Source: Promethearchaeota archaeon
Lineage (GTDB): Archaea > Asgardarchaeota > Lokiarchaeia > Sigyniarchaeales > SOKP01
Length of the DNA: 32,000 nt
Direction: 5' to 3'
NCBI GenBank assembly: GCA_030606485.1
Contig: JAUWGH010000003.1
Location: 60,001 to 92,000 of the forward strand
Shown here: in pieces, positions 9,711-19,188 of the stretch
Numbering within the stretch: the stretch's first letter is position 1
Layout of the letters: each line of letters begins with the position of its first letter
Position numbers and translations under genes: made by a program
Notes under the pieces: model-generated
What the model saw: the letters and a program-made list of their open reading frames with translations, nothing else
Told to the model about the DNA's origin: nothing
Database searches by the model: none

Positions 9711-10481
9711 ATGGATTGGGGAATGAAAAATCGCTTATCACGGATAATTAACCCAAAATCTGGGCATTGTGTAATGTTAGCAGTTGATCACGGTTATTTT
9801 GGGAATGTTCCTGGTGCTTTGAAACGTTTTGAAGACTTAAATATACTTTTTGAATATGCTGACGCTTTAATGTTAACACGTGGAATGCTTCGAAACTGTG
9901 TTCCTGCAGAAGTTGATAAACCAATAGTTCTGAGAGTTTCAGCTGGTGCGAGTATGCTGAAGGAACTCTCAAATGAGGAAATCAATGTTACTATAGATGA
10001 TGCGATAAGATTGAATGTATCTGCTATCACATGCTCGATTTTTATCGGTGGTGAATATGAAAAACAATCAATTATGAATCTTTCGAAGTTAGTAAATTGG
10101 GGTCAAACATATGGTATCCCGGTTCTAGCAGTTACTGCTGTTGGTAGAGAGATGGTAAGAGATGCAAGATATTTGGGTATGGCATCTCGAATGGCAGCTG
10201 AAATGGGTGCAACTTTCGTTAAAACTTATTACTGTGAAGATTTTGAGGAAGTTACTAGTATATGTCCAGCACCAGTTGTTATTGCAGGTGGCAGTAAAAT
10301 TCCTGAGAGAGATGCTTTACAAATGGCTAAAAATGCTATAGATAAAGGGGCAGTCGGCGTAGACATGGGAAGGAATATTTTTCAATCTGATAAACCTGTT
10401 GGAATGATTAAAGCAGTAAGAGAAATTGTCCATAAGAACGCTAGTGTAGATGATGCATTTGAAATTTACCAAAACGGGTGA
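9711..10481 (+). CDS. lsrF: LsrF-type 3-hydroxy-5-phosphonooxypentane-2,4-dione thiolase (class I aldolase fold)
   Basis: N-terminus MDWGMKNRLSRI, MLAVDHGYF, FVKTYY (Schiff-base Lys), VIAGG and GVDMGRNIFQ. These match the LsrF subfamily rather than DhnA-type FBP aldolase. Confidence 0.9.
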   Translation: MDWGMKNRLSRIINPKSGHCVMLAVDHGYFGNVPGALKRFEDLNILFEYADALMLTRGMLRNCVPAEVDKPIVLRVSAGASMLKELSNEEINVTIDDAIRLNVSAITCSIFIGGEYEKQSIMNLSKLVNWGQTYGIPVLAVTAVGREMVRDARYLGMASRMAAEMGATFVKTYYCEDFEEVTSICPAPVVIAGGSKIPERDALQMAKNAIDKGAVGVDMGRNIFQSDKPVGMIKAVREIVHKNASVDDAFEIYQNG

Positions 10482-10539
10482 ATTAAAAAATTTTCTTAAT
10501 TTTTTTTTCTACATTTATTTATATTTTACGGGATTATTC

Positions 10540-11517
10540 CTATTTACTTTCATAATAAGGTGATTGTCTAAGTATATGTTTTTTAGCAATTGGCCGAATA
10601 ATCAGCGGAAAAATTTGATTGAAAAATCTTGAGACTTTAACCTTTTTCTTGACTTCTTTAAAATAATCATCAAGAGTGTATCTCTGATATTGAAGTAAAT
10701 TTTGACTTTTTTCTGTATCCATAAATCCACAGTGAAAATCATCTTCACTAAAGGCCTCGGAAGGTAAAAAATTGGTTCCAAGACCAAATAATTTAAACAT
10801 TCTATTAAGATAATCCCTATAGATGATCCGACATTTTTGTCCTCCGGCGATATTCAGTGTTTCACCCCAAATTTCATTATTTTCCACTGTATTTGCAAGA
10901 GCAAGTCCAACATCTTTAGTATCGCAAATCTCAATACATGTGTCTAGTGGCATATCAAACATTATGGGGTCCATTTGAAGTTTATTAGGGGAGACAATAT
11001 AGGTTAAGCGTAAAATAACCCATTTTAAACTATAAGATCTGATGAGATCTTCACATTTTAGTTTTTGTTTGGCATATTCATCATCAATTGTGGGATCAGG
11101 AGGGTCGCTAGTGCTAATTAAAGGAGATTTACGGCGATCTCCATAAATTGCTATTGAAGATGTATAAACCAATCGAGGCTTTTGGGGTTGCATTTCCATT
11201 GCCTTAATAATATTTGAGGTTCCTCCAACATTAACTTCTTCGGCAAATTTTGGTTGTGCATCAGCAATTGGAGGAATTATGGCAGCAACATGTAATACGA
11301 CATCCATTCCTGAGACGGCTTTATTAACATCCTCACTATTCCGTAAATCCCCCCAAATTATTTCAACTTTTCCTTCATAATCTTTTGCTATCTTTTTATT
11401 TTTAGAATTCTCAATATCAAAAATTCTAATGTTATAATTTTTTTTAGATAATTCCTTTAAAGTGCTTAATCCGACATTTCCAAAAGCTCCTGTAAGAAGA
11501 ATATTCATTAATTTCAC
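10540..11517 (-). CDS. NAD(P)-dependent epimerase/dehydratase (extended SDR)
   Basis: ILLTGAFGNVG Rossmann motif, VLHVAA, YTSSIAIYG, YAKQK (YxxxK). Confidence 0.9.
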   Translation of the reverse strand: MKLMNILLTGAFGNVGLSTLKELSKKNYNIRIFDIENSKNKKIAKDYEGKVEIIWGDLRNSEDVNKAVSGMDVVLHVAAIIPPIADAQPKFAEEVNVGGTSNIIKAMEMQPQKPRLVYTSSIAIYGDRRKSPLISTSDPPDPTIDDEYAKQKLKCEDLIRSYSLKWVILRLTYIVSPNKLQMDPIMFDMPLDTCIEICDTKDVGLALANTVENNEIWGETLNIAGGQKCRIIYRDYLNRMFKLFGLGTNFLPSEAFSEDDFHCGFMDTEKSQNLLQYQRYTLDDYFKEVKKKVKVSRFFNQIFPLIIRPIAKKHILRQSPYYESK

Positions 11518-11622
11518 TAGTTAATTTTAAAAAAAAATTAGATTTATCATAAAAATAATATTCAATTCGTATTAAAAGTTACAAAATTTACAAATATTTA
11601 AATTTAATTATTATTGACATTG

Positions 11623-12663
11623 TTACGGTTCGAAGATGACCTTTAAAGATTCATTCGCTTCACAGACTACTTTAAAAGCATCTCCAGCTCTACTTAGTGG
11701 AAATCGGTGGGAAATTAAATCTACTACCTTTATTTTTTTAGATTTAATCCATTCAAATGCTTCATCAAGATCTTCAGGAGCAGCGCCATAAGAAGTCATA
11801 ATAACAACCTCATTCCTCCAGTAATCATTTATGGGGATTTTTATATTTATACCGGGTTTTGGGACTGCAAAATAAATAATAACCGTTCCAGGGCCTGCAC
11901 ATTCTATTGCCTGTTTTGCAGCAGATAATGCACCTGTACATACAATTATACAATCAGGAGGCCTGTTTTCGTTAAATTTTTTTACCTCTGCAAGTATGTT
12001 TTTACTTGCATGGAGAACTACTTCTGCCCCAAATTCTTTTGCCTTTTTTAATCGGTATTCACTAATATCAGTTGAAATTATTTTATCAATCCCCTTTGCT
12101 TTTGCTAATATAAGATGCAATAGGCCTGAAACTCCACTACCTAAAATTAAGAGTGTTTGTCCTTTTCTAATATTTGCTAAACGCTGAGCTCGACATACAC
12201 ATCCTAATGGTTCAATAAAAACTCCCTCGTCATACGTCATATTCTCTGACAAAACATAAACCCCCTTTTTTTCTAAATTGATATTTGGAATTTTAATATA
12301 TTCTGCAAAACCCCCAGGATCATAATTTGTATTATGTAATAAATGACAAGCGGTATGATGCCCAAGTTGACAGTAATGGCAATCGAAATCCGGTACGTGA
12401 TGGGACACAAAAACTCGATCCCCTAATTTATAATCCGAAACACCTTCACCGATTTCAACAATATCACCCGTCATCTCATGACCTAGAACGAGACTATCTA
12501 CTCCTAATTTTTTCATTTTAGCAAAACGATAATATTCCAAAATATCACTCCCGCAAATTCCAGATTTTTTTACTTTTATTAATAGTTCTCCATAATTGAT
12601 CTGAGGTTTAGGCATTTCTTCTAATCTAACATCATCATTATTATAATATTTTGCAACTTTCAT
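11623..12663 (-). CDS. Zinc-dependent medium-chain dehydrogenase (L-iditol/sugar-alcohol dehydrogenase-like)
   Basis: GICGSD, LGHE, structural Zn site DFDCHYC...C, IEPLGC, ILGSGVSG. Confidence 0.9.
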   Translation of the reverse strand: MKVAKYYNNDDVRLEEMPKPQINYGELLIKVKKSGICGSDILEYYRFAKMKKLGVDSLVLGHEMTGDIVEIGEGVSDYKLGDRVFVSHHVPDFDCHYCQLGHHTACHLLHNTNYDPGGFAEYIKIPNINLEKKGVYVLSENMTYDEGVFIEPLGCVCRAQRLANIRKGQTLLILGSGVSGLLHLILAKAKGIDKIISTDISEYRLKKAKEFGAEVVLHASKNILAEVKKFNENRPPDCIIVCTGALSAAKQAIECAGPGTVIIYFAVPKPGINIKIPINDYWRNEVVIMTSYGAAPEDLDEAFEWIKSKKIKVVDLISHRFPLSRAGDAFKVVCEANESLKVIFEP

Positions 12664-12783
12664 AATTAATCTATAAATTTTTTATTTATAGAGAATATTT
12701 TAATCTAAATAGAAATAACTTTACTTTTAATTTTACTACTTTTCTTCAACTTTTTTATAGAATTAAATTGAATAATAATTATT

Positions 12784-13317
12784 ATGAATGCAAAAAATTC
12801 AGATCAAGTTGACTTAGATAAGTGTTTTGATGAAAAAATAGAAGAATTAAATAAACTATTACCAAAAGGGGAGCAAAATAAAAACTGTTCTGCTTGGACT
12901 TTTATAAGTATCTTGGATGTATTAGGATTAGAAAGTGTTTTTTTTAATAATCTGGCAATTCCTCTTGCTGAAGGTTTTGGGGGTTTTAAGAGCATGCATG
13001 GGTGGAAAGGGCCTTGTGGAGCCATCTGTGGTGGTTGTGCTGCAATCGGAATAATAATGGGAGGGCAACAAGAGTTAAAATTTGGAGCTAAACCAAGAAT
13101 ATATTTAAGAACGGCTAAATTCGTTCATTACTTTGAGAAAGAGTTTGGCTCTGTAATTTGCGAAGATCTTTGTGGAATAGATTTTGGAGATCCTTCTGGA
13201 CTTCAGAAATATTTAGATGATGATATTTGGGGAAAAACATGCTATAAATATGTTATTAAAGCAGTTGATCTTGTAAGAAAAGTAACAGGTAAAGAATTAA
13301 TAAGAAAGTGGGGTTGA
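12784..13317 (+). CDS. C-GCAxxG-C-C family putative redox-active protein
   Basis: Single Cys (NCSA), then FGG...GPCGAICGG, then ICEDL and TCYKYV, which gives the C, GCAxxG, C, C spacing. Confidence 0.85.
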   Translation: MNAKNSDQVDLDKCFDEKIEELNKLLPKGEQNKNCSAWTFISILDVLGLESVFFNNLAIPLAEGFGGFKSMHGWKGPCGAICGGCAAIGIIMGGQQELKFGAKPRIYLRTAKFVHYFEKEFGSVICEDLCGIDFGDPSGLQKYLDDDIWGKTCYKYVIKAVDLVRKVTGKELIRKWG

Positions 13318-13319
13318 TA

Positions 13320-13715
13320 TCACATCGATAATAATTCTTCTTTAGATATTTCTTGTCGGTGTTTTTGATCTGCCCATAATTTACGATAGAAATAGAAATA
13401 TTCATATAAATCTAATTTGTCTGGTGAATAAATTAGAATTCCATCTTTGATAACTTGAATTTTAATATATAATGGTAATTCAGAGAAAAATCGAATGTCA
13501 TATTTTTTCGAAACAACGTCTATATTTCTTAAGAATACTGATAATAGTTCGTAATTTTCTTTATTTGGAGCAACAATACAAATATCGATATCACTTCTAT
13601 TTGTCTCCCAATTATATATATAAGATCCGAATAATAATATCCCTAATATCTCTTTATTTGTAAATGAAAATGAAAAATCATTAATTATTTGGTTTAAAAG
13701 TTCTTTTGATACCAT
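13320..13715 (-). CDS. mntA: Minimal nucleotidyltransferase (MNT) antitoxin
   Basis: LFGSYIYNWETNRSDIDIC is an exact GSx10DxD. Start overlaps the upstream HEPN stop by 22 nt. Confidence 0.85.
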   Translation of the reverse strand: MVSKELLNQIINDFSFSFTNKEILGILLFGSYIYNWETNRSDIDICIVAPNKENYELLSVFLRNIDVVSKKYDIRFFSELPLYIKIQVIKDGILIYSPDKLDLYEYFYFYRKLWADQKHRQEISKEELLSM

Positions 13716-14131
13716 TTCTTAACAACCTCTTTATATTTCTCTAAACCATTTATGTGAGACAAAATTCCCTTATATGCAATTTCATCAACAAGACGATTAT
13801 ATTTATGCACAATTTTATTTCGCAGGCCAGTTGCTTCTTTTATAACAAGTGATATTTCTTTAGAAATAATTTGTTTCTTAACTAAAAGATTAATATTCGT
13901 ATAATCATCTTTGGGGATTAGATTTAAATCTTTTATGATCATTGCTGCTAAATCTGAAATTGCTTCTATTATTATTTGATAAGCATGATATATTGATAAT
14001 TGTTCTCTGATATTTAATTTATATATGAAATCATTTTTATTAATATCTTTAGTCCAATCCTTAAGATAATTTAAGAATTCTTCAATTTGTTCTAACTTTT
14101 CTTTATACCTTTTGATTCTTTTCTTTTCCAT
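13694..14131 (-). CDS. hepT: HEPN (DUF86) ribonuclease toxin
   Basis: GLRNKIVHKY is the Rx4HxY motif. All-helical composition, paired with the MNT gene. Confidence 0.85.
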   Translation of the reverse strand: MEKKRIKRYKEKLEQIEEFLNYLKDWTKDINKNDFIYKLNIREQLSIYHAYQIIIEAISDLAAMIIKDLNLIPKDDYTNINLLVKKQIISKEISLVIKEATGLRNKIVHKYNRLVDEIAYKGILSHINGLEKYKEVVKKWYQKNF

Positions 14132-14208
14132 TCTAATATGATATATTATTTTATTTTTTAATATTTATGCATTTGGGATTAATTAATTGGCTCATATTTT
14201 TGCATTTC

Positions 14209-15696
14209 TTAATATTTTAAGTATAATTTATAAGCTTCTTCCCATTTTGAATTATTTTCTGGTTTATAAGATTTTATTTCAAAAGAATTCCTAACAATAC
14301 GTCGTAATTGTTCAAGTGATTCTATTTGATCTGTCGCTACAGCCTGCATTAAAATATTTCCAATAGTTGTAGCTTCACTTGGTCCAGCATCTACAGGAAG
14401 ATTAGTAGCATTGGATGTAAATTGGCATAGAAGTTCATTTTGAGAACCTCCACCAATAATATAAATTTTTTCGATTTTTTTATCTGAAAATTCATGTAAT
14501 TGGTCGAGAATTTGACGATATCTAAAAGCTAATCCTTTAAAAATTGTTCTAGAAATAGAACCTATTTCCGTGGGAACATCTTGATCTGTTCCTTTACAGT
14601 AATTTTGGATTGTTTCAATCATATTCTTTGGGTTTAAAAACATTTCATTATCTGGAAAAATAAAACTAGTATGTGGTTTTGCTCTTTGCGCTAATTTTTC
14701 AATTTCATCATAAGAAATTTTTGTTCTATTTTGTTCTTCCCATATTCGTTTGCATTCTTGAATTAACCATAATCCCATAATATTTTTAAGAAAGCGAATT
14801 GTTCCAAAAACCCCTCCTTCATTAGTAAAATTATATTTAAGAGCTTTTTGATTTATTATGGGTTGAGATAATTCTAATCCCATTAAACTCCAAGTACCCG
14901 AGCTAATATAAGCCCAATTCTTAACTTTTTCTTCAAGTGGGACTGCTGCAATTGCCGCAGCAGTATCATGACAGAGAGTTGCAATAACGGGTGTATTTTC
15001 ATCTAAACCAGTTTTATTTGTTATAGAGTTATATATTTTTCCAAGAATAGTTCCAGGGTTTATAATACCGGGAAACCACTTAGGATTGAATCCTAACTTT
15101 TTTATTAAATCAAACGCCCATTCATTCTTAATTGGATTATATAACTGCGATGTTGTTGCTAATGTATATTCTGATCTAATTTTTCCTGATAGTAAGAAGT
15201 TAAAATAATCTGCAATCATTAAGAATTTTTTTGTAACAGTAAGTTGTGGGGATTTGGATTTTACCATAGAAAATAATTGAGTAGAGCTATTAATTGGCAT
15301 GAATTGAATTCCAGTTTGATTAAAGATTTCTTCTTTTCGAACGACCTTAAACATTTCATCAACCATTCCATCAGTTCGCTTATCTCGATAATGATGATTG
15401 AGCCCTACAAGCTCATAATTTTCATCTAAAAGAACAAAATCAACTCCCCAACTATCGATTCCAATTCCATCAAAATTGGGTCCATACTTTTCTACACACA
15501 TCTTCAAACCATTTTTTATTTCTTCGAAGAGTCTTAAAGTATCCCAATATAAGGAATCAAATAATTGAATACCTCCATTGGAGAAACGGTATACCTCATC
15601 CAATTTTAAGAGTTTGCTTTCAAGAATTCCTACTATTACCCTTCCCGCACTTGCACCTAGATCTATTCCAATATATTTCTTCATTGGCTCTGTCAT
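14209..15696 (-). CDS. rhaB: Rhamnulokinase-family (FGGY) sugar kinase
   Basis: GIDLGASAGRV, GIGIDSWGVDF, HYRDKRT, TGIQFMPINS, HDTAAA, YISSGTWSLMG, FTNEGG, NIMGLWLIQEC, GGGSQN, EAT.IGN. Confidence 0.88.
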   Translation of the reverse strand: MTEPMKKYIGIDLGASAGRVIVGILESKLLKLDEVYRFSNGGIQLFDSLYWDTLRLFEEIKNGLKMCVEKYGPNFDGIGIDSWGVDFVLLDENYELVGLNHHYRDKRTDGMVDEMFKVVRKEEIFNQTGIQFMPINSSTQLFSMVKSKSPQLTVTKKFLMIADYFNFLLSGKIRSEYTLATTSQLYNPIKNEWAFDLIKKLGFNPKWFPGIINPGTILGKIYNSITNKTGLDENTPVIATLCHDTAAAIAAVPLEEKVKNWAYISSGTWSLMGLELSQPIINQKALKYNFTNEGGVFGTIRFLKNIMGLWLIQECKRIWEEQNRTKISYDEIEKLAQRAKPHTSFIFPDNEMFLNPKNMIETIQNYCKGTDQDVPTEIGSISRTIFKGLAFRYRQILDQLHEFSDKKIEKIYIIGGGSQNELLCQFTSNATNLPVDAGPSEATTIGNILMQAVATDQIESLEQLRRIVRNSFEIKSYKPENNSKWEEAYKLYLKY

Positions 15697-15721
15697 AAAT
15701 TATAATTAAATATCGAAATTT

Positions 15722-15727
15722 TTATAA
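15722..15727. promoter_or_regulatory. Candidate shared palindromic TATA core between divergent kinase and aldolase genes
   Basis: TTATAA is centred about 28 nt from both start codons (15696 and 15752). The motif is common in AT-rich DNA, so support is weak. Confidence 0.3.
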
Positions 15728-15751
15728 TTTTTCAAATATTTATGGAAAATT

Positions 15752-16426
15752 ATGGAAGCTGATAAAGAAGACCAACTTAGAATAGAAGTTGTAAATGGAG
15801 CGAAAGCAATCTTTACTAAAGGCTTAGTGGAAGCAGGAGAAGGTAATGTAAGTATCCGAATTCCAAAAAAGGATGAACTCTTCATCACACCATCATTTAA
15901 TCAATATACAACCTTAGTGAAAAATGAAATAGTTCATATGAAATTTGATGGTACGCCTTTAAGTTCAGGAAAACTGCCCTCTACAGAATATCGGCTTCAT
16001 GTAGCTATTTATGAAGCGCGTCCAAAAGCTAATTGTGTAATACACACTCATTCACCATTTGCAACTATGCTTTCTGTTGTGCAAAAAAAGATTCCAGTAA
16101 TTATGGAAGAACAAATTGTATTTATAGGTGGATCTGTTGATATAGCGGAATTTGGTAAGGCACATACTGAAGAAATTGGAGAAAAAGCACTTGAAGTTAT
16201 GGGTATGAAAAATGGTGTATTATTAGCCAATCATGGAGTTTTAGTATGTGCAAGATCTATGGGACATGTTGTTAAATTGGCAGAATTGATTGAAAAATTA
16301 GCAAGAATTTATTGGGGCGCACTCCAAATAGGAGAACCTATTTTAATTTCAGAAGAAGATTGTCAAAGATTTAAAAAACACTTCGATTCTTTGTTTGCAA
16401 CTTATGTAAAAAAAAGAAAGAGATAA
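15752..16426 (+). CDS. fucA: Class II aldolase/adducin family, L-fuculose-1-phosphate aldolase-like
   Basis: GEGNVS.R, ITPS, PSTE..LH, HTHS, LLANHG (metal-binding His triad and catalytic Glu). Substrate not proven. Confidence 0.75.
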   Translation: MEADKEDQLRIEVVNGAKAIFTKGLVEAGEGNVSIRIPKKDELFITPSFNQYTTLVKNEIVHMKFDGTPLSSGKLPSTEYRLHVAIYEARPKANCVIHTHSPFATMLSVVQKKIPVIMEEQIVFIGGSVDIAEFGKAHTEEIGEKALEVMGMKNGVLLANHGVLVCARSMGHVVKLAELIEKLARIYWGALQIGEPILISEEDCQRFKKHFDSLFATYVKKRKR

Positions 16427-16489: not shown

Positions 16490-16990
16490 TTGACTGCAAA
16501 TATAATTACAAAAGTAGTAGAAATAAATAACTGTAATGGAGATACACTTATAGCAGCAATTTATAAAGAAGAATTTTGGGAAATTGTGAGTCCTGTTACT
16601 AAAATTGAAGTAGAGTTCATTTCCCCCAATGTATTTCGGAGTGAGATTATTGATGAAGTTAAATTAAAACTTTTAAATATTCCAATAGAGATGACCGGAG
16701 AAATGGTTTTATTAGATAAGGGAGAAATAGCACAGAAAGGACGATTAATTGAATTTAACGTTCGAAATAATAAAGATGTAAAAAGATTAGAAGGGCGTTT
16801 TAGAATTAAACAGATCTCTACAAATGTTGCAAAAGTTGGAGTATTCATTCAAAATCTTGAATTAAGTAGTGATTTTCTTAACCTTATTGGTAAAGGCGCT
16901 TCGGAATTTATTCTGAGATCAAAAATAACTGGCTTGTTGAGAAATTTGGAAAAATACTGCAAAACTAGCAATCTTAAAGATCTTTTATAG
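16490..16990 (+). CDS. Hypothetical protein, possibly SRPBCC/START (CoxG-like) helix-grip fold
   Basis: 166 aa. An N-terminal strand and short helices (FWEIVSPV) are followed by many alternating beta-strands and a long C-terminal helix. The fold call is pattern-based only. Confidence 0.55.
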   Translation: MTANIITKVVEINNCNGDTLIAAIYKEEFWEIVSPVTKIEVEFISPNVFRSEIIDEVKLKLLNIPIEMTGEMVLLDKGEIAQKGRLIEFNVRNNKDVKRLEGRFRIKQISTNVAKVGVFIQNLELSSDFLNLIGKGASEFILRSKITGLLRNLEKYCKTSNLKDLL

Positions 16991-17877: not shown

Positions 17878-19188
17878 TTAAATTGTATTATCTTTATTCA
17901 ATCCTAATTCATCCTCCGCATACTTTTTTATTGCACTCCATTGGCTTTCACTTGTTCCATAATATTTAAAGAGAGCGATGCCTAAGCCAAAATCAAATCC
18001 TTTCATTTGTTTTAACATCTCTTCAGTATTACATTCTACGGAATTGGTGATTGACAATACAGGAGTATTACCGAATTCGTGAGCTCGCTTTTTCATATTT
18101 CTAATAAAATACCAATAGAAGAAATCACCTACTTTACCCCAAAACCATCCATCATCTCTAGTTCCCATTAAATAGGGGTATTCCATGGATGAGACAACAT
18201 CCAAAATCGTAGATATTTTCTGCCAATTTTGACCCAGTCTTTTCCTTGAAAATAACTTTTTTGGTCCAGGAAGACAAAACCATCCTGTGATACAATCTTG
18301 ATTAATGGATTTTATCGTATCTTGTAATTTCTGAGCATATTCTGCAATAGTATCGGCTTTAAAATCATACCATTCATTGCTATTAATTAATTTTGCTTTC
18401 TCTCCGTATTTATCATGAAATAATTTAACACAACGATCACAAGCACATAAATCAATAAATGCTCCATCATATCTGATATAATCTGCAAAAAAAGCTTTAA
18501 TATGATAATTCTTTACTATCTCTTTCGTTAGCTCTAAAAGATAATCAATATGCTCACTATTTGGACACATGAAACTAGTTAAGGGGATATAACCTTGACC
18601 CCGAGTGGCTCTAGAAGCACCAAGCTTTTCATCTATTTTATTTGTTAAGAATGGAATTTTTTTCTGATATTCTTCAAAGGAAATTCCTTCTGGTAAATCC
18701 ACTCTCAATTCACCTTCATTATGTGTTGATATTTCTCCTTTTTTATATTCTATCCCATGCTTTTTTCCACTTTTGCCGTGAACACTAACTCTTTCAGGAT
18801 GTAAATACCCTTGATAAGCATCATTCATTGATGTGAATGAAACCATTAATGCAATATTTCTATCCTTTCCAGCATCACAAAATTCTCCTAAAATGTCTCG
18901 ATCAGTAGGATTCCATCCAATATTTGTGTCCCAAGTACATGCACCATCAGTGTCTTTAATAACTAAACCAAAAACATTAATATGACACTCTTCTAATTTA
19001 TCCATTACCTCATTTACATTAAGACCATTTTGAGCAAATTTATAATCTAATTTTCTAAACCCTTTTGGACCTCTAACCGGCATCAGTCCCATAGCATAAA
19101 CTTTTTTTACTCCGAAATTTGTTTGTATATTTTCAATTTTCTTCAAATCCATTGAAAAATATTTTGACCAATCTACTGCTTTTATCAA
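17878..19188 (-). CDS. Glycoside-hydrolase-like TIM-barrel protein (GHL10/GHL6-like)
   Basis: Pattern FMCPNS...YLLEL.KEIVKNY...FFADYIRYD, a CACDRC metal motif, and DILGEFCDAGKDRNI. No signal peptide evident. Confidence 0.6.
   Translation of the reverse strand: MIKAVDWSKYFSMDLKKIENIQTNFGVKKVYAMGLMPVRGPKGFRKLDYKFAQNGLNVNEVMDKLEECHINVFGLVIKDTDGACTWDTNIGWNPTDRDILGEFCDAGKDRNIALMVSFTSMNDAYQGYLHPERVSVHGKSGKKHGIEYKKGEISTHNEGELRVDLPEGISFEEYQKKIPFLTNKIDEKLGASRATRGQGYIPLTSFMCPNSEHIDYLLELTKEIVKNYHIKAFFADYIRYDGAFIDLCACDRCVKLFHDKYGEKAKLINSNEWYDFKADTIAEYAQKLQDTIKSINQDCITGWFCLPGPKKLFSRKRLGQNWQKISTILDVVSSMEYPYLMGTRDDGWFWGKVGDFFYWYFIRNMKKRAHEFGNTPVLSITNSVECNTEEMLKQMKGFDFGLGIALFKYYGTSESQWSAIKKYAEDELGLNKDNTI

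Follow-up and report, generated by a model that had tools for sequence, protein, structure and literature searches.

The window analysed here, a stretch of 32 000 nucleotides from a Promethearchaeota archaeon of the Lokiarchaeia (C8:60001-92000 of genome G000, which is 3.75 Mb in size, 100% complete and about 28% G+C), encodes a homologue of LsrF and a zinc-dependent alcohol dehydrogenase (Zn-ADH), and the two very probably make up a functional unit that is independent of the lsr system. LsrF is known solely as the final enzyme in the destruction of the autoinducer-2 (AI-2) signal, its thiolase activity having reportedly been established by Marques et al. in 2014, and its database names lead genome surveys to read quorum sensing from it. 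The pairing described below points to an undescribed route from a deoxy-sugar phosphate to dihydroxyacetone phosphate (DHAP) and acetyl-CoA. The fuller statement, that this is a two-enzyme module unrelated to AI-2 uptake with 5-deoxyribulose-1-phosphate as its substrate, we regard as a serious possibility that stops somewhat short of likely. The two genes are as follows.

9711..10481, + strand: LsrF-type class I aldolase-fold CoA thiolase, 256 amino acids (NF006081, 396 bits against a cut-off of 297; 56.6% identity to Escherichia coli LsrF)
11623..12663, - strand: Zn-ADH, a Zn-dependent medium-chain dehydrogenase/reductase (MDR) of the polyol/threonine dehydrogenase group, 346 amino acids (Pfam ADH_N and ADH_zinc_N)

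LsrF and the lsr genes

On its sequence, the window protein is a true member of the LsrF family. It scores 396.3 bits as a whole protein on NF006081, the curated LsrF equivalog model (397.7 bits in the genome search), and the E. coli LsrF structures (PDB 3GKF, 3GLC and 4P2V) match it at 310 bits. The catalytic and phosphate-binding residues of the E. coli enzyme are K203, D57, D251, R254 and G226/227/253 (PMC2728841); the window protein keeps the Schiff-base lysine as Lys171 (K203), the general-base aspartate as Asp26 (D57) and the phosphate site as Gly193, Gly194, Gly220, Arg221 (R254) and Asp218 (D251), and these positions are occupied in the same way in 105 of 106 aligned family members. 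The closest database copies carry the NCBI names Lokiarchaeota or Promethearchaeota, and the protein is already called a 3-hydroxy-2,4-pentanedione-5-phosphate (P-HPD) thiolase. Compared with LsrF of the E. coli/Salmonella lsr operon (EC 2.3.1.245), it is of the same family, with 57% identity and an identical Schiff-base lysine, general-base aspartate and phosphate site, but it lacks the N-terminal arm, is found in an archaeal host, and is paired with a dehydrogenase in a genome without LsrK, LsrG, LsrACDB or LsrR.

Three paralogues are present in the genome, two ADH synthases and one DhnA-type aldolase, and none of them is an LsrF. ADH synthase (AroA', MJ0400; PDB 2QJG) belongs to the archaeal aromatic pathway that proceeds through 6-deoxy-5-ketofructose-1-phosphate (DKFP); it has the same fold, constitutes the closest paralogous family and also acts on a methyl-ketone sugar phosphate, but it is encoded by distinct genes, and on the LsrF model its two genome copies reach 182 and 149 bits, whereas the window protein reaches 396. 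Service of the LsrF/Zn-ADH cassette in this pathway was considered and rejected, as ADH synthase occurs in all of the Lokiarchaeia families sampled, including those without LsrF and Zn-ADH.

A sequence-only reading of the window had noted lsrF without lsrK, lsrG, lsrR or lsrACDB, and had raised the question of whether unlinked copies could account for it. We searched the whole genome by tblastn (E <= 1e-3) with the lsr queries of the annotated K-12 operon, as well as with protein models. LsrB, LsrC, LsrD, LsrG and LsrR of E. coli gave no tblastn matches in the genome, and LsrA matched generic ABC ATPases only; no FGGY kinase in this 100% complete genome exceeds the LsrK cut-off, the best (284 bits against 528) being a XylB-type xylulokinase; and neither an ABM (LsrG) domain nor LuxS was found in the genome, both searches being positive in control genomes. 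The absence of LsrK, LsrG, LsrB, LsrC, LsrD and LsrR therefore holds genome-wide, well beyond the window, and LsrF is not accounted for by lsrK or lsrG elsewhere. A short class II aldolase-like gene and an FGGY kinase gene lie together at C2:399471-403040, the kinase (C2:401565-403040) having LsrK as its best NCBIfam match, although a weak one (204 bits against 528).

The sequence-only reading had offered AI-2 scavenging, or quorum quenching, with unlinked genes as its alternative. On this explanation 4,5-dihydroxy-2,3-pentanedione (DPD) or its phosphate, of exogenous or spontaneous origin, would be processed by LsrF together with an unlinked, non-orthologous kinase and isomerase. The sole proven substrate of LsrF does derive from AI-2 (E. 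coli annotation; PMC2728841), and the genome has several FGGY kinases, among them the one just described. We nevertheless consider scavenging extremely doubtful, given that no LsrK above cut-off, LsrG/ABM domain, LsrB, LsrR or LuxS was found in the genome, and it leaves a conserved dehydrogenase partner without a role. Nor is it favoured by bacterial contexts: in a sample of 80 bacterial LsrF loci taken from species-representative genomes of more than ten phyla, a true LsrK (44-45% identical to that of E. coli) adjoins LsrF in just three, all of them in the Chloroflexota, and LsrG in none.

The dehydrogenase partner in archaea and bacteria

Comparison of 20-kb regions around LsrF in 20 Lokiarchaeia genomes, representing seven genera of one family, shows the Zn-ADH in 19 of the 20 loci, always convergent with LsrF and about 0.1-6.5 kb from it, while the surrounding genes differ; in genus g1 the pair is retained despite wholly changed surroundings. 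The phyletic patterns of the two genes agree. Of 161 Lokiarchaeia genomes, 110 have an LsrF above the cut-off, and almost all of these belong to family f1, where LsrF occurs in 110 and the Zn-ADH in 114 of 134 genomes, against one and none, respectively, of the 26 genomes from other families. Counted jointly, both genes occur in 102 of the 161 genomes; a further 10 carry LsrF without the Zn-ADH, 13 carry the Zn-ADH without LsrF, and the remaining 36 lack the two. Many single-gene cases lie at contig ends, and as the genomes are kin the count does not amount to a statistical test.

A 316-residue metallo-beta-lactamase (MBL)-fold protein is encoded after LsrF, on the same strand, in 14 of the 20 Lokiarchaeia loci (for example L042:10469-11419, + strand, in the same-genus genome G025). 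It has an HxHxDH motif, no Pfam match and an Atlas structural TM score of 0.7-0.8 to MBL hydrolases, and could represent an additional, third component of the cassette in Asgard archaea; the gene is gone from the present genome, where no copy lies between 10481 and 10540, and from G023. Other Lokiarchaeia neighbours (clusters 6, 5, 7, 12, 14 and 16, which comprise a zinc-ribbon protein of unknown function, a DtxR-type regulator, an F420-type oxidoreductase, a ferredoxin-domain protein and a major facilitator superfamily (MFS) transporter) are syntenic in several genera, but we have not counted them in the unit, as they are elsewhere in this genome or absent from it.

The pairing recurs in bacteria. 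An orthologous Zn-ADH gene lies immediately beside LsrF, and in the same direction, in 25 of the 80 bacterial loci, which belong to the Desulfobacterota, Spirochaetota, Fibrobacterota, Bacteroidota, Nitrospirota and Bacillota, and six further contexts of this kind were found outside the 80 (L067, L068, L069, L175, L176 and the P0148 contig). These LsrF-adjacent dehydrogenases of unrelated organisms are 42-60% identical to the Zn-ADH of the window, and no other gene of this genome matches them nearly as well. The nearest non-Asgard LsrF representatives (57-58% identical) are on metagenomic contigs of 52% and 65% G+C, the first with the order LsrF, Zn-ADH, class II aldolase (gaps of 10 and 108 bp) and the second with the order LsrF, a 186-residue protein, Zn-ADH; their dehydrogenases have 46-49% identity to that of the window and score 283-326 bits, against 100 or less for its paralogues in G000. 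In three more divergent LsrF representatives (41-46% identical) the Zn-ADH again directly follows LsrF.

The position of the Zn-ADH is taken in 48 of the 80 bacterial loci by a bifunctional class II aldolase/short-chain dehydrogenase (SDR) fusion (NF006194, 785 bits against 686), a subgroup of the RhaD-type RhaEW/YuxG family that provides a dehydrogenase domain beside LsrF. The fusion is absent from the window, where a separate Zn-ADH is the partner and the class II aldolase is unfused, unlinked and of housekeeping type. The strongest indication that LsrF needs a dehydrogenase step is the substitution of one dehydrogenase for another, unrelated one in the same place. Other genes join the cassette less often, with a gene of the ribulose-phosphate-3-epimerase family following LsrF in 21 of the 80 loci and a RuBisCO-like protein (RLP) accompanying the cassette in seven, six from Chlorobiaceae and one from Desulfobacterales (L149). 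The six Chlorobiaceae loci (L118, L119, L135, L136, L137 and L146) have the conserved order aldolase/SDR, LsrF, RLP, aldolase/SDR, which ties the long-unexplained RLP of Chlorobium to LsrF chemistry.

We also considered the possibility that there is no functional coupling, adjacency in Lokiarchaeia being inherited synteny and LsrF acting without a partner; its substrates might then be, for instance, diketone phosphates that arise spontaneously from pentulose phosphates. The compared Lokiarchaeia genomes are indeed of one family, and hence not independent, and the two genes are convergent there and do not form an operon. This explanation is nonetheless very improbable, since tight co-directional pairing is found independently across numerous bacterial phyla as well as in divergent lineages of LsrF, and since the archaeal pair has outlasted the changes around it in genus g1, with matching phyletic patterns. 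The sequence-only reading had proposed a branch composed of dehydrogenase and LsrF; its functional tie is upheld by adjacency, shared phyletic pattern and the replacement dehydrogenase.

A phylogeny of LsrF (IQ-TREE, rooted with ADH synthases) resolves a monophyletic Asgard clade (support 100) and leaves five deep lineages in no resolved order, of which four contain Zn-ADH-linked members and the fifth contains the E. coli lsr-operon LsrF; the lsr-operon type is restricted to that one lineage. Within the large bacterial clade the partner alternates repeatedly between Zn-ADH and aldolase/SDR. An earlier FastTree run had put the Asgard clade beside a Zn-ADH-linked bacterial sequence, but since the better IQ-TREE run left the deep lineages unresolved we name no donor of the Asgard cassette. 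In the most divergent lineage (L176, L178 and the P0148 contig) a glyoxalase/VOC-family gene follows the LsrF/Zn-ADH pair; together with the MBL-fold (glyoxalase II-like) gene of Lokiarchaeia, this hints at the handling of a reactive dicarbonyl or thioester.

A proposed oxidative-thiolytic route and its alternatives

A set of 47 orthologues shares the zinc ligands of the Zn-ADH (Cys37, His62, Glu63 and Glu151), its GSGVSG fold and Asp199; three structural-site cysteines are also kept, and the conserved Asp199 favours NAD+ as the probable cofactor. The protein exceeds no NCBIfam equivalog cut-off, the best match being threonine dehydrogenase, Tdh (TIGR00692, 152 bits against 458; NF003808, 156 against 380). 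Its nearest relatives of solved structure are the sorbitol, L-arabinitol, xylitol, butanediol, threonine and galactitol-1-phosphate dehydrogenases, all of which act on a secondary hydroxyl beside another oxygenated carbon to give a ketone.

In the scheme that we propose, an MTAP-like phosphorylase and MtnA would convert 5'-deoxyadenosine, the by-product of radical S-adenosylmethionine (radical-SAM) enzymes, to 5-deoxy-D-ribulose-1-phosphate. The NAD+-dependent Zn-ADH would then oxidise the C4 hydroxyl of a methyl-terminated 1-phospho-2-ketose, for which this compound is the likeliest candidate, so that CH2OP-CO-CHOH-CHOH-CH3 would become CH2OP-CO-CHOH-CO-CH3, the 2,4-diketone P-HPD and known substrate of LsrF. 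LsrF would form a Schiff base with P-HPD through Lys171 and pass the acetyl moiety to CoA, with DHAP and acetyl-CoA as products. The usual aldolase route yields DHAP and acetaldehyde; here, by contrast, the redox step would pull the reaction forward, no free aldehyde would be released and a thioester would be saved. The starting point of the sequence-only reading, that C4 oxidation of either 5-deoxyribulose-1-phosphate or 1-deoxyxylulose-5-phosphate (DXP) gives P-HPD, is correct chemistry on paper. The aldol equilibrium lies strongly toward 5-deoxyribulose-1-phosphate (PMC6079011), and this preference for the ketose phosphate provides a thermodynamic rationale for an oxidative exit.

The supply of the substrate, for which the sequence-only reading had suggested a search for mtnA and methylthioadenosine (MTA) phosphorylase, is partly accounted for. 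MtnA is present at C10:707289-708152 (TIGR00512, 374.7 bits against 279), and an MTAP-like gene at C10:131249-131878 scores marginally under its cut-off (TIGR01694, 269.7 bits against 274.85), so that the genome is plausibly able to make both 5-deoxyribulose-1-phosphate and methylthioribulose-1-phosphate. The proposed route shares its input and its DHAP product with the DHAP shunt, or 5-deoxyribose salvage (MtnP or MtnK/DrdK, MtnA/DrdI, Ald2/DrdA), for which the genome has MtnA, the MTAP-like gene and a DrdA/FucA-like aldolase; it differs in ending with oxidation and CoA thiolysis to acetyl-CoA rather than aldol cleavage to acetaldehyde, and the shunt genes are not clustered with the cassette here. 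In its logic it resembles Tdh and Kbl (threonine dehydrogenase and 2-amino-3-ketobutyrate CoA ligase), in which a zinc MDR dehydrogenase likewise makes a methyl ketone from CH3-CHOH- before CoA splits off acetyl-CoA. The Zn-ADH is, however, far under the Tdh cut-offs, the second enzyme is of the Schiff-base aldolase fold rather than dependent on pyridoxal phosphate, and the substrate would be a sugar phosphate instead of an amino acid.

Several observations weigh against this scheme or parts of it. Substrate, reaction direction and physiological source are all matters that we infer, the substrate from chemistry and context alone. The convergent arrangement in Lokiarchaeia means that LsrF and the Zn-ADH are not co-transcribed there. 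MtnA and the MTAP-like gene are on contigs other than that of the cassette and unlinked, and MtnA linkage is rare in bacteria (two of the 80 loci, at 0.9-2.4 kb from LsrF), linkage of rhamnose genes being equally frequent (two of 80); the module thus appears to sit downstream of two different ketose-1-phosphate suppliers, each rarely. Neither the epimerase-family gene of 21 loci nor the class II aldolase domain of the SDR fusion has a place in the scheme, and Lokiarchaeia families without the cassette keep the aldolase, so the cassette is dispensable. The N-terminal arm of E. coli LsrF is a domain swap that stabilises the decamer. All Asgard copies are without this arm of about 31 residues, having four residues before the DWGM motif compared with 35 in E. 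coli, and their quaternary structure may therefore differ from that of the E. coli enzyme.

A further point against 5-deoxyribulose-1-phosphate is that, in this and other genomes of the genus, a rhamnulokinase-like gene lies at a distance of 1.5 kb from the Zn-ADH. This raises the alternative that the same module acts on a 6-deoxyhexulose-1-phosphate (L-rhamnulose-1-phosphate or L-fuculose-1-phosphate) supplied in this genus by the neighbouring kinase and, through C4 oxidation and thiolysis, yields DHAP and lactoyl-CoA. Two Pirellulales loci also have RhaB-like kinases at 3-8 kb from LsrF, and one of the two has RhaA at 1.9 kb; the alternative partner, aldolase/SDR, is related to RhaD-type rhamnulose-1-phosphate aldolase/dehydrogenase (TIGR02632, 450 bits against 568); and a glycoside-hydrolase-like gene is present in the window at 17878-19188. 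We consider this substrate unlikely, given that RhaA is absent from this genus, that elsewhere in Lokiarchaeia the kinase is part of a full set of clustered rhamnose genes, which includes a separate aldolase and an aldehyde:ferredoxin oxidoreductase (AOR) but no LsrF, and that the distribution of the kinase does not follow that of LsrF. Rhamnose genes are moreover missing from most cassette loci, and LsrF shares 57% identity, and an unchanged active site, with the E. coli enzyme, which is specific for acetyl.

The bacterial contexts also bear on a second substrate class, 1-deoxy- or 1-methylthio-pentulose-5-phosphates (DXP, or the products of methylthioribulose-1-phosphate isomerisation by RLP), which would be oxidised at C4 to P-HPD or its methylthio analogue and cleaved by LsrF. 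C4 oxidation of DXP would likewise give P-HPD, RLP is in the operon in the six Chlorobiaceae loci and the one from Desulfobacterales, and the epimerase-family genes that follow LsrF in 21 of 80 loci act on ketose phosphates with a distal phosphate. Neither RLP nor the epimerase occurs near LsrF in the 20 Lokiarchaeia loci, however, and archaea normally use mevalonate, which counts against DXP; for the cassette described here such substrates are distinctly unlikely. Reversal of the whole sequence, with LsrF condensing acetyl-CoA and DHAP to P-HPD and the dehydrogenase then reducing P-HPD to a pentulose phosphate deoxygenated at C1 or C5 and destined for a cofactor or a secondary product, seems to us quite improbable. 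Both Claisen-type reactions and those of polyol dehydrogenases can in principle be reversed, and the cassette is mostly alone, without obvious feeder genes; but Asp199 marks an NAD+-type rather than an NADPH-type site, the contexts include no linked consumer of the product and no biosynthetic cluster, and thioester cleavage normally drives toward acyl-CoA use.

Our literature search, which was incomplete in coverage, returned no paper that connects LsrF with Asgard archaea, RLP or any dehydrogenase. We tentatively suggest that association with a dehydrogenase is the ancestral and main use of LsrF, in a general oxidative-thiolytic split of ketose-1-phosphates into DHAP and acyl-CoA (acetyl-CoA from 5-deoxyribulose-1-phosphate and possibly lactoyl-CoA from rhamnulose-1-phosphate). 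Such a route would be widespread in anaerobes and would have reached Asgard archaea in cassette form, and enteric bacteria would have co-opted the enzyme late for the degradation of AI-2. As LsrF travels with a dehydrogenase, and without AI-2 genes, in many phyla, quorum-sensing readings would be wrong for most environmental genomes, including those of Asgard archaea. If the proposed route from 5-deoxyribulose-1-phosphate is true, it would be a new end for the salvage of 5'-deoxyadenosine, a toxic by-product of radical-SAM enzymes, giving acetyl-CoA directly; an ending without free acetaldehyde would suit strict anaerobes rich in such enzymes. Two recombinant enzymes, and a substrate for which an enzymatic synthesis already exists, would allow the proposal to be tested directly.

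Neighbouring genes and an intron-like insert

The window also encodes Ras-family GTPases and archaeal-type enzymes. The five genes on which the sequence-only reading was built (those for LsrF, SDR, Zn-dehydrogenase, RhaB-like kinase and FucA-like aldolase) were all recovered in place as open reading frames with profile matches. Around LsrF and the Zn-ADH lie the following features.

10540..11517, - strand: extended SDR, 325 amino acids (Pfam Epimerase/3Beta_HSD; motifs TGAFGNVG and YAKQK)
12784..13317, + strand: putative redox protein of the C_GCAxxG_C_C family (Pfam PF09719, 62.9 bits)
13320..14131, - strand: MntA/HepT type VII toxin-antitoxin pair (NF047752, 48.8 bits; NF047751, 65.7 bits; Pfam Polbeta and HepT-like)
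14209..15696, - strand: RhaB-like (rhamnulokinase-like) FGGY kinase (TIGR02627, 492 bits against a cut-off of 528)
15752..16426, + strand: FucA/DrdA-like class II aldolase (Pfam Aldolase_II, 156 bits; all NCBIfam equivalogs under cut-off)
16490-16990, + strand: 166-residue protein (no Pfam match; SRPBCC/START-like by language-model features only)
17878-19188, - strand: 436-residue protein (weak glycoside-hydrolase-like matches to GHL6, DUF4015 and alpha-L-fucosidase, all under Pfam cut-offs)

LsrF is convergent with the pair formed by the Zn-ADH and the SDR, the latter lying 106 bp downstream of the former on the same strand, while the kinase and aldolase genes are divergent with a gap of 55 bp. 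The C_GCAxxG_C_C gene and the MntA/HepT pair, on both of which the sequence-only reading was silent, separate the Zn-ADH from the kinase. Among the 20 Lokiarchaeia loci, the SDR, the C_GCAxxG_C_C gene, the toxin-antitoxin pair, the kinase and the aldolase are found near LsrF again only in two of the same genus. The neighbourhood is therefore conserved with respect to LsrF and the Zn-ADH (19 of 20 Lokiarchaeia loci and many bacterial phyla) but not with respect to the SDR, kinase and aldolase.

The SDR had been placed with LsrF in the sequence-only reading. It is beside LsrF in this genus only (same-genus loci L042 and L043) and in none of the 80 bacterial loci, and we regard it as a genus-specific addition and possible accessory. 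The kinase and aldolase, which had been expected to handle the same deoxy-ketose as LsrF, are excluded from the unit by conservation and phyletic pattern. The kinase occurs in 18 of 41 relatives, independently of LsrF, and in other Lokiarchaeia genera its relatives (54-60% identical) are clustered with RhaA (Pfam, 612 bits), AOR, a second class II aldolase and an MFS sugar transporter, with no LsrF nearby. RhaA is absent from the present genus, as PF06134 has no match in G000, G023 or G025 and a Lokiarchaeia RhaA query gave no tblastn match; the second class II aldolase of the rhamnose cluster has likewise been lost, and the kinase of this genus may have changed substrate. The window aldolase is found in 36 of 41 Lokiarchaeia relatives irrespective of LsrF, including families without it, and is the only close copy in this genome; its orthologue in other genera is within an unrelated conserved block. 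Its best PDB match, DrdA (6BTD, 102.5 bits), which cleaves 5-deoxyribulose-1-phosphate, is equalled by E. coli FucA (101.6 bits).

The LsrF gene itself is interrupted in some relatives. In ten Lokiarchaeia genomes from five genera, the catalytic GVD|MGRN motif is split by an insert of exactly 32 nucleotides that separates its Asp codon from its Met codon (L055:10315-10346 in G051, and L056 and L179-L186); the equivalent site of the window, at 10356-10378, is uninterrupted. The insert causes a frameshift, yet the 42 codons 3' of it are intact and conserved. Its consensus fold has a 4-bp helix, a 3-nucleotide bulge and a 3-nucleotide unpaired stretch on opposite strands, and then a 10-bp stem, with compensatory changes in eight of the 20 predicted pairs, and cuts after the second base of each bulge would remove the 32 nucleotides and restore Val-Asp-Met-Gly in nine of nine sequences. 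Each genome checked has one copy of the element. These features make the insert a candidate bulge-helix-bulge intron, of the type cut by the splicing endonuclease, within a protein-coding gene. Such cases go unmentioned in a recent preprint on the tRNA introns of Asgard archaea. A second, in-frame insert of about 30 nucleotides, with a stop codon, splits the Asp57-His-Gly|Tyr60 (DHG|YFG) motif of LsrF in L056 (G035), and probably also in L184 (G145) and L185 (G036), and may be a second mini-intron.

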